Assembly (NCBI RefSeq): GCF_963921235.1
Contig: NC_086097.1
Coordinates: 28,832,001-28,896,000 of the forward strand
Reading direction: 5' to 3'
Length of the DNA stretch: 64,000 nt
From: Mobula hypostoma
Taxonomy: Eukaryota
Shown here: positions 16,441 to 18,117 of the stretch, one piece after another
How positions within the stretch are numbered: position 1 is the stretch's first letter
Layout: every line of letters starts with the position of its first letter
Program-made: the position numbers and the translations under genes
Notes under the pieces: model-generated
Database searches by the model: none
What the model saw: only the letters and a program-made list of their open reading frames with translations
What the model was told of the DNA's origin: nothing

Positions 16441-17267
16441 TCTATTAACCATCCTGGAAATTCTGGAGAACCAAAGGGTCTATACAGATGAGACAGTAAA
16501 AGAAACTATTATTGTAAAGTAACGCTACTAGAAAAACATCAGAGCATCAAAAACATAAATCCTAAGAGCTTTGAAAGAGGTAGCTACAGAGATCATGATT
16601 CTCCAGATATTTTCCAAAATTCTATAGATTTTACAATAGTTAATGAGATCGGAGGGTGGCAAATGTGACCCTATTGTTTAAACAGGGTGAAGTGAGAAAA
16701 ATGGGAATTATTTGGTAGCTTGACATCAGTATTTAGGAAGACACGAGAATCTTGATGTTTTACCAATAACATAACTGGACAGTGCTAAAATGATTTATGA
16801 AAGGAAACGGAAACTGCCTTCATTGAGGATGTATCCAGTAGAGTAGATGAGGGGGTTAAAACAAGAAAATGTAATGCATTTGGATTTCCCAAACAGGATC
16901 TAGTAAACAAGGTTAGAACAAATGGAATTAGGGGTCAACTTACTAATATTCTTTGACAGTTAATTAATAGAGAACAAGAAAGCACAAATAAGTACTTCCG
17001 AGGTTGGCAGGCTATGCCATCATCATCATATATGACATGGGTGATCAAGACTTTTGACCATGGTAGTTCGTAGCAAATTTTTCTACAGAAATCGCTTGCC
17101 GTTGCCTTTTTCTGGGTAGTGCCTTTGCAAGATGGGTGACTGCAAACATTATCAATACCCTTCAGAGATCGTCTGCCTGCTGTCAGTGGTCACATAACCA
17201 GGACATGATATGCACAGGCTATGAGCAGTGGCATAATACAGAGATCAGTGCTACAACTACTCACACT

Positions 17268-17461
17268 GGGGTGTGTGGGGTGTCAGGGAGGGGTAGCACC
17301 TCTGGTGGGGTAACATGTCGCGTCCTTTTCAAGGCGGTTAGTCCACCTTTGGTCCCCACCTGGCACTCAGCTCTCACCTGTGGCTCCCCGTAGCTGTTTG
17401 CATGCGACAGCGGCCACACCCCAGGCAACGGCTTTGACAAGCCGGCTAAACCAGGCGAGGG
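17268..17461 (+). ncRNA. Candidate HDV-like self-cleaving ribozyme
   Basis: P1 17268-74/17416-22; P2 17371-80/17452-61; P3 17382-84/17413-15; L3 begins TCCCCGT; P4 17429-34/17439-44; J4/2 GCTAAAC. Confidence 0.7.
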
Positions 17462-17831
17462 TAGCCGACGGGTCTCAAACCCTCGGTGAGATAGGGAGTT
17501 GTCTATCCCAGCATGTGAAGACAGACTCCAGCGGATTGAGCGGACGAGACTAATGGAAGGTCCAACGGTCAAGAAGGCAGTCTCTGCAAGCGTCGTGGAA
17601 CGTGTAGAGCAGGACAAGACACAGAAGACTTCCTGGTCATCCACTGCACCTAGTCTCATCTCCAGTCGTCTAGACTCTGTCTTGCCACTGGATCCAGATG
17701 GGAATTGGGAAGAGAGAGTGAGGCTGACTCTGCGCAACTCTCCCTCACTTAAATCCAAGTCACGCGCTAGTCTCAACACCATCATAATGGTTTCGAGGTC
17801 CTCATCAACGTACGATGGACGAACAACAACA
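17268..17831 (+). mobile_element. Non-coding RTE-type retroposon with 5' HDV-like ribozyme, (CAA)n tail and 9-bp TSD
   Basis: TSD ACTCACACT at 17259-17267 and 17832-17840; 3' GAACAACAACAA tail; GC-rich structured head; no recognisable protein. RTE assignment is inference from the tail and 3' sequence. Confidence 0.8.
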
Positions 17832-18117
17832 ACTCACACTCAATATCCAAGTTTAATGAAGACACAACTGGGAATGTGGTAGTGATGAAAATGCAAAGAC
17901 TAAGAGAAAAGGCAAAATTAATTGACATCTGCAGTACATGGAAACATGATGTTATCAAATCAAAACTGGAATGAAAATACTTTTAAAAATAATGATGAAA
18001 GACAGAAAATGCTGAGATTCAAAGAGACCTGGGTATATTGTAAAAGGTAAAGATGAGCTTTATTTGTCACATGTACATCAAAATGTACAGTGAAATGCAT
18101 TTTTGTGTGAAATCAAG

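Follow-up and report, generated by a model that had tools for sequence, protein, structure and literature searches.

The HDV-like ribozymes of LINEs share a nested double-pseudoknot fold and cleave at, or close to, the start of the element, freeing it from a co-transcript, and they combine long J1/2 insertions with few conserved core bases, namely the catalytic C and the U, CC and G of L3 (PMC6765202, PMC3774820). J1/2 lengths of 216–498 nt are on record, about a quarter of R2 ribozymes have one or two mismatches at the top of P1, and the G and C of L3 are important in HDV-like ribozymes (PMC3774820). The Anopheles ribozyme drz-Agam-2 has a stable J1/2 helix that draws P1 and P2 close at their outer ends, and a J1/2 helix, P1.2, activates the ribozyme (PMC4908430). 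Ribozymes of this kind also lie at the exact 5' end of NARTc (Trypanosoma cruzi) and of the R2 SIDEs (short internally deleted elements), which have a LINE-type 3' end, are moved in trans and are recent deletion derivatives of a known LINE (PMC3383444, PMC3414825). Other short non-coding retroposons whose RNA is self-trimmed, such as the Schistosoma Sm-alpha hammerhead SINEs, the animal retrozymes and the S. mansoni non-LTR twister variants, use another ribozyme class and are often tandem or occur as circular RNA (PMC6765202, PMC8501958).

Here we describe a related arrangement in a 64,000-nt stretch of Mobula hypostoma contig NC_086097.1 (the window), where a non-coding retroposon of roughly 550 nt (17268..17815, + strand, delimited by genome matches and contig depth) begins with a 194-nt segment that a sequence-only reading had proposed to be an HDV-like ribozyme. 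We consider it likely that this head is a real HDV-like self-cleaving ribozyme of a LINE-dependent non-coding retroposon. In contrast to the LINE ribozymes, its carrier is a short non-coding element, its L3 contains a 19-nt hairpin, it is not recognized by Rfam and it has the standing of a candidate. It differs from NARTc and the R2 SIDEs in that at least two successive retroposon families have retained the head, in that no LINE with the head or tail was found among the matches listed, and in its animal host with a 3.48-Gb genome, whereas the hammerhead and twister elements are set apart by their ribozyme class and by the dispersed single copies with target-site duplications seen here.

The genome searched was a 3.48-Gb assembly of 200 contigs. 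A 573-nt query returned 4708 first-look candidates, of which all 40 that were scored matched at 95–96% identity over nearly the full length (nt 1 to ~566), and a search with 29 nt of the ribozyme core, tolerating at most three mismatches, gave 3742 genome matches vs. none for a reversed control. Judged by sequence, this group of copies, family A, is a young family. The copies are dispersed and single, are flanked by target-site duplications of 7–22 nt (detected in 21 of 30 family A copies) and have a defined (CAA)n tail with one to five CAA units among the 30 copies, and a Pfam search of the long frames of the element found no family above threshold. This combination of dispersal, duplications, tail and lack of an ORF of known family is that of a LINE-dependent retroposon. 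The genome holds ~3700 young and several thousand old copies, and related copies were also present in runs from four other organism labels. The antisense of the element is open throughout (17264–17833, minus strand, about 190 aa, 188–190), with a frame of at least 183 aa in 23 of 30 copies; frames of at least 185 aa, in any frame, occurred in 22 of 3000 dinucleotide shuffles. This frame has no Pfam match and is not open in the majority sequence of the older family B described below, and we regard it as a curiosity.

The window copy is flanked by ACAACTACTCACACT (17253..17267, +) and ACAACAACTCACACT (17816..17830, +), a 15-nt target-site duplication with one mismatch whose 5' member directly adjoins G17268, in agreement with the proposal that the head forms the exact 5' end of the element. 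The 3' limit of the element is blurred because the (CAA)n tail overlaps the duplication. Two 3' stem-loops, both decayed in the window copy (17762..17807, +), precede the tail, GACGAAC(AAC)n, which is of variable length (17808..17823, +), and the terminal 3' stem-loop, CATCG-loop-CGATG followed by GGAC(G)AAC, is common to families A and B. Contig depth in four public runs, with four organism labels, was near zero at 17220–17245, rose from 17268 and fell after about 17817, and in one run from another organism heterogeneous flanks meet the element at 17267/17268. Just upstream, at 17168–17219, lies a different high-copy repeat with very high contig depth in all four runs.

The 5' ends of the copies are uniform. 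In the 30 family A copies, 20 begin with the full GGGGT, nine lack 1–3 nt and one lacks 9 nt, consistent with the expectation that full-length copies share the start G; these copies were the best-scoring matches and hence full-length, so truncated copies are under-sampled among them. Where duplications mark the start, it falls between −2 and +2 of the consensus in 15 of 21 copies and between +3 and +5 in the remaining 6, and no copy with a duplication reaches more than 3 nt upstream. Both the duplications and the step in contig depth make P1 begin where the element begins, and the proposed cleavage site would lie immediately 5' of that base. The motif GGGGTGT occurs twice, at 17268–74 and 17277–83, 9 nt apart, and either copy can pair with ACACCCC and satisfies the descriptor used below; only the first fits the observed 5' ends, and one of the 30 copies (L008) begins at the second. 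Competition of the second copy for the 3' strand of P1 counts somewhat against the ribozyme reading.

The head also had been said to lack Pol III character, and this was borne out. ARAGORN found 0 tRNA-like genes in the element, Rfam found no tRNA, 7SL or 5S head, and a TTTT run, which would stop Pol III, lies inside the head at 17326–17329. The small-RNA head with A and B boxes that marks a classical SINE was not seen. These results bear on an alternative explanation, that the head is a conserved structured RNA (for example, a platform bound by the protein of the partner LINE) or a Pol II or Pol III promoter that lies internally and is read as DNA, with the start at G1, no cleavage and an HDV likeness that is coincidental. 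We think this explanation unlikely: the missing tRNA, 7SL or 5S head and the T4 run inside the head count against it, as does a 7-bp P1 that begins at base 1. In its favor, any internal promoter would also give a uniform 5' end, and the first 77 nt of L1Tc are both promoter and ribozyme (PMC3383444).

A search for a LINE that could have supplied the machinery returned no candidate that we retained. No partial matches appeared when the element was compared by blastn with the window and with 29 locus flanks. The 3' anchor of the ribozyme, with family A excluded, gave 28 matches, comprising family B, two deletion variants of family A and an unrelated repeat, and no LINE. The unrelated repeat is abundant, carries TAAACCAGGTGAGGG followed by a G-rich GGAAGGTGGGTGG-like sequence, and accounts for 17 of the 28 matches (L031, L034–L037, L039–L040, L042–L046, L048–L049 and L053–L055, on various contigs). 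The two deletion variants (L057 and L058, both on C96) have the same short deletion after the 3' strand of P2, with GGG TTATTAAAACCC replacing GGG TAGCCGACGGGTCTCAAACCC, and may represent either a small subfamily defined by the deletion or a segmental duplication. In a Pfam RVT_1 search, the best 150 of 332,527 candidates all belonged to one young L1-like LINE (e.g., C40:77476700–77480166, L089), whose open frame reaches 1264 aa and whose 3' end is A-rich; it is not the partner. The terminal-hairpin pattern, with the SINE itself excluded, gave 19 matches vs. 27 in the control; the one recurrent match whose sequence was inspected proved unrelated. Taken over the matches listed (the best 40–150 per search), no LINE sharing the head or the tail was found. 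The partner may be of RTE type, since RTE-dependent elements have similar tails.

All the motifs that had been reported in HDV order are present in the window copy. P1 is formed by GGGGTGT (17268..17274, +) and ACACCCC (17416..17422, +), with the proposed cleavage just 5' of G17268, and P2 by CTCTCACCTG (17371..17380, +) and CAGGCGAGGG (17452..17461, +), with one A.C mismatch (17376/17456) in the window copy and 95.0% of cells paired over 60 copies. P3 pairs GGC (17382..17384, +) with GCC (17413..17415, +), the latter directly before the 3' strand of P1, in 96.7% of cells. The CC at 17386–17387 in L3 forms the 5' strand of P1.1, and its 3' strand is the first two bases of J1/4, AGGCAA in the window copy and GGGCAA in the family (17423..17428, +). 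P4 is a hairpin, CGGCTT/TGAC/AAGCCG (17429..17444, +), in which T17435 is private and the family has C. J4/2 is GCTAAAC (17445..17451, +), with C17446 as the candidate catalytic base; it provides the catalytic C followed by A that is typical of HDV-like ribozymes, and over the 60 copies of both families each of C, T, A, A, A and C is kept in at least 90%, and the preceding G in 60 of 60. In silico, the five pairings P1, P1.1, P2, P3 and P4 thus occur in the nested double-pseudoknot order, with the 3' strand of P3 adjoining that of P1.

Between P1 and P2 lies a 96-nt J1/2 (17275..17370, +), a rod-like hairpin domain of the P1.2 peripheral type that folds alike in families A and B. The earlier description of J1/2 as a structured domain of about 95 nt stands, and the GGTGGGG/CCCCACC helix assigned to it does not, since the minimum free energy fold uses GGGG/CCCC and GGUGGG/UCCACC in its place. 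As in drz-Agam-2, the rod would bring the outer ends of P1 and P2 together; it differs from that helix in being longer, a 96-nt rod with 2–3-nt linkers, and in its unrelated sequence, and a role in activation is proposed by analogy.

The most unusual part of the head is L3. In known HDV-like members L3 is about 7–8 nt and is not known to contain a helix. Here it is 28 nt long (17385..17412, +) and consists of a 5' side, TCCCCGTA, a 6-bp hairpin and a G; it starts TCCCCGT and has the U, CC and G of HDV. The hairpin, GCTGTT/loop TGCATGC/GACAGC (17393..17411, +, 19 nt), is paired in 92.7% of cells, and its placement in the 3' side of L3 and its retention in families A and B uphold the original observation. 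HDV has its last two L3 bases after the L3 G, where the hairpin sits here. We found no precedent for a helix inside L3 in the literature searched, whose coverage of L3 detail in RTE ribozymes is incomplete. The loop (17399–17405) contains the self-complementary GCATGC, in both families if CpG decay is allowed for, and a kissing-loop contact between two RNAs is possible. An L3 of this length and shape, being outside the range known for active members and having no precedent in the literature searched, would also suit a second alternative: that the ribozyme was active in an ancestor (the 5' end of a LINE or an old retroposon) and has since been inactivated by the L3 hairpin or other changes, the present 5' ends arising by another route. 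For reasons given by family B below, we hold this relic to be improbable.

The majority sequence of family A differs from the window copy at four positions of the head: G17275 is A, A17423 is G, T17435 is C and C17456 is T. The G at 17423, found in 24 of 30 copies, restores GGGCAAC as in HDV, and the T at 17456 (28 of 30) makes all 10 bp of P2 pair, one of them as G.U, the A.C mismatch being private to the window copy. The changes at 17423, 17435 and 17456 were likewise present in almost every contig from the four runs with four organism labels, and A17423 is, as had been suggested, a private CpG-decay change of this copy. The L3 residues U, CC and G together with a two-pair P1.1 are found in the majority sequence of family A and, once CpG decay is corrected, in that of family B, and not in the window copy, where A17423 breaks P1.1. 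Together with the A.C mismatch in P2, this break has probably crippled the window copy, and the active form would probably be the family A majority.

Pairing was counted over 60 copies (30 each of families A and B), 48 pairs and 2840 cells. Standard pairs occurred in 92.0% of cells, compared to 37.8–49.9% when the partners were slid by one to three columns, and the covariation score of 0.106 (0.085 in shuffles) was reached by 0 of 500 shuffles; these figures overstate independence, as the copies are related and represent only two lineages. The number of pairs with change on both sides was 10 compared to 7.5 in shuffles, a value that 68 of 500 shuffles reached and that is not significant. The real covariation content is a few family-level compensatory events, all in P4 and P1.2. 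Of P1 to P4, for which covariation had been called for, P4 has compensatory changes between families A and B, and P1, P2 and P3 are invariant. As P1, P2, P3 and P1.1 do not vary between the families, covariation neither supports nor contradicts them. A subfamily with G6A, which turns the sixth P1 pair into an A.C mismatch, has spread uncompensated (143 ACACCCC vs. 4 ATACCCC). This is not fatal to the ribozyme, since about a quarter of R2 ribozymes have one or two mismatches at the top of P1 (PMC3774820).

Rfam returned 0 matches for the whole window at gathering scores, and of the curated HDV-type models (HDV_ribozyme, CPEB3, drz-Agam and HDV-F-prausnitzii) none reached significance. The only Rfam model with any match at relaxed settings was RF02682 of Faecalibacterium prausnitzii, which aligned to J1/4-P4-J4/2 only, with 14.1 bits (E 7.6) for the window copy and 13.2 bits (E 3.7) for a consensus-like copy, i.e., 13–14 bits against a gathering score of 44. 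Over that stretch, (A/G)GGCAACGG..CCGGCUAA is nearly identical to the model consensus, GCUAA included, while P1, P2, P3 and L3 are unaligned, and RF02682 is a bacterial gene-associated ribozyme without a J1/2 rod or L3 hairpin. The minimum free energy of the 194 nt was no better than that of shuffles (z = −1.04), a measure that says little about a pseudoknot. Pseudoknots are also outside the scope of RNAalifold, which recovered P4 and the apical P1.2 only and proposed other long-range pairs.

The lack of a significant Rfam match, the lack of covariation in P1–P3 and the spread of the G6A subfamily with its P1 mismatch speak for a structured RNA or internal promoter with a coincidental HDV likeness. 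Such a coincidence would have to extend to many independent matches to the HDV core in the correct order (UCC..G, the GG of P1.1, GGGCAAC and GCUAA) and to the adjoining 3' strands of P3 and P1, and it would leave unexplained that the differences between families A and B fall at positions known to be free.

We also applied a loose HDV-type descriptor, with J1/2 of up to 150 nt and L3 of up to 35 nt. Of the 30 family A copies, 21 satisfied it, and in 11 of these P1 started at the first base; the window copy failed because of A17423. Among 2000 dinucleotide shuffles of a 200-nt family copy it gave two matches, and 0 at the first two bases, a result that also weighs against the head being a mere structured RNA or promoter; in 126.7 kb of the remaining window, both strands included, it found 13 sites. 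Together these counts mean that the fold alone is uncommon but not rare, and that specificity is added by its position at the first base of the element and by the exact core motifs. The 13 sites in unrelated window sequence are the one result that leans toward a chance resemblance in a GC-rich repeat, an explanation we give very little credence, in that only 2 of 2000 shuffles match, neither of them at the first base, the fold is mended in the family majority, and family B retains it with compensatory changes.

Family B was uncovered with a pattern anchored on the ribozyme end that excluded the bases that follow in family A. It comprises about 5977 first-look candidates, with copies 76–79% identical to the query, and on sequence comparison is an older sister of family A with the same head. 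The first 16 nt, both strands of P1 and of P2, P3 and GCTAAAC are identical between its CpG-corrected majority and family A, and P1.1 and the L3 residues U, CC and G are unchanged. The L3 hairpin, loop included, is identical in the CpG-corrected majorities and hence shows no covariation between the families. The 5' side of L3 is TCCAAGTA in family B, with AA instead of CC at positions 4–5 and the other positions the same, and positions 3–5 of J1/4 differ. The second base pair of P4 reads GC in 30 family A copies and CG in 12, UG in 11 and UA in 4 of family B, a majority change from G-C to C-G, and base pair 5 goes from U-A to U.G (UA:32 vs. UG:27). J1/2 differs in sequence and folds into the same rod, with folding energies of −47.2 (A) and −45.4 kcal/mol (B); the base helix of P1.2 was rebuilt between the families, and the apical P1.2 has compensatory pairs at 60/96 (GC:29 vs. 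AU:27), 63/93 (GC:27 vs. UA:17) and 65/91 (AU:30 vs. GC:27). All A/B differences that fall in helices preserve pairing. Copies at C12:180153727 and C21:182702030 share the first 17 nt and have a J1/2 intermediate between, or different from, those of families A and B; they may be further subfamilies.

Identity between families A and B is 100% over nt 1–10, 88% over the core (104–194), 75% over 195–300, 66% over 301–400 and 55% over 401–500, and this fall along the element makes the head the most constrained part of the source genes. The uncompensated P1-mismatch subfamily would be in line with an inactivated relic, as would the atypical L3; yet a dead sequence would be expected to decay as fast as the remainder of the source gene, and here the core is the best conserved part of families that differ by 25–45% elsewhere, the L3 hairpin has been kept unchanged and the catalytic-core residues are intact in both majorities.

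If the head is a self-cleaving ribozyme, as we favor, the life cycle of the element could proceed as follows. No promoter of its own was found, and the element would be transcribed within longer host transcripts. The ribozyme would fold as a nested double-pseudoknot and cut just 5' of G17268, with the C of GCUAAAC presumably acting as general acid/base, as in HDV, given the known chemistry of the HDV-like family, and the 96-nt J1/2 rod may be the equivalent of the activating P1.2 peripheral domain. HDV-like ribozymes cut themselves with the help of divalent ions and leave 2',3'-cyclic phosphate and 5'-OH ends. Cleavage here would free an RNA that starts exactly where the element does, and a LINE reverse transcriptase, beginning at the 3' stem-loop and (CAA)n tail, would copy it into a new site. 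The terminal 3' stem-loop and tail would serve as the recognition site of the partner reverse transcriptase, and the target-site duplications of 7–22 nt observed in the copies would be made on insertion.

A wider reading, which we put forward tentatively and with rather more doubt than conviction, is that the element represents a distinct retroposon class with an HDV-like ribozyme in place of the Pol III head. The ribozyme would have been kept through at least two families and would belong to a new subtype with a conserved helix in L3 ("P3.1"). Such a class would depend on read-through host transcription and self-cleavage, and the GCAUGC loop could be a site of kissing-loop dimerization or protein binding that links cleavage to packaging. 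The literature listing examined contains no vertebrate SINE with such a ribozyme head.

Should the majority sequence not cleave, the element would be no more than an abundant repeat of ordinary kind whose 5' domain is structured and conserved. Should it cleave, the HDV fold would tolerate a whole helix in L3, a loop that builds the active site, and the descriptors used in genome searches would widen, as the present Rfam models miss this head. The element would then be a clear case of a line of non-coding retroposons that has long been without a Pol III promoter and relies on its ribozyme head, with a bearing on how promoter-less retroposons are expressed. For the host, thousands of such heads, many of them probably within transcription units, could cut host pre-mRNAs.
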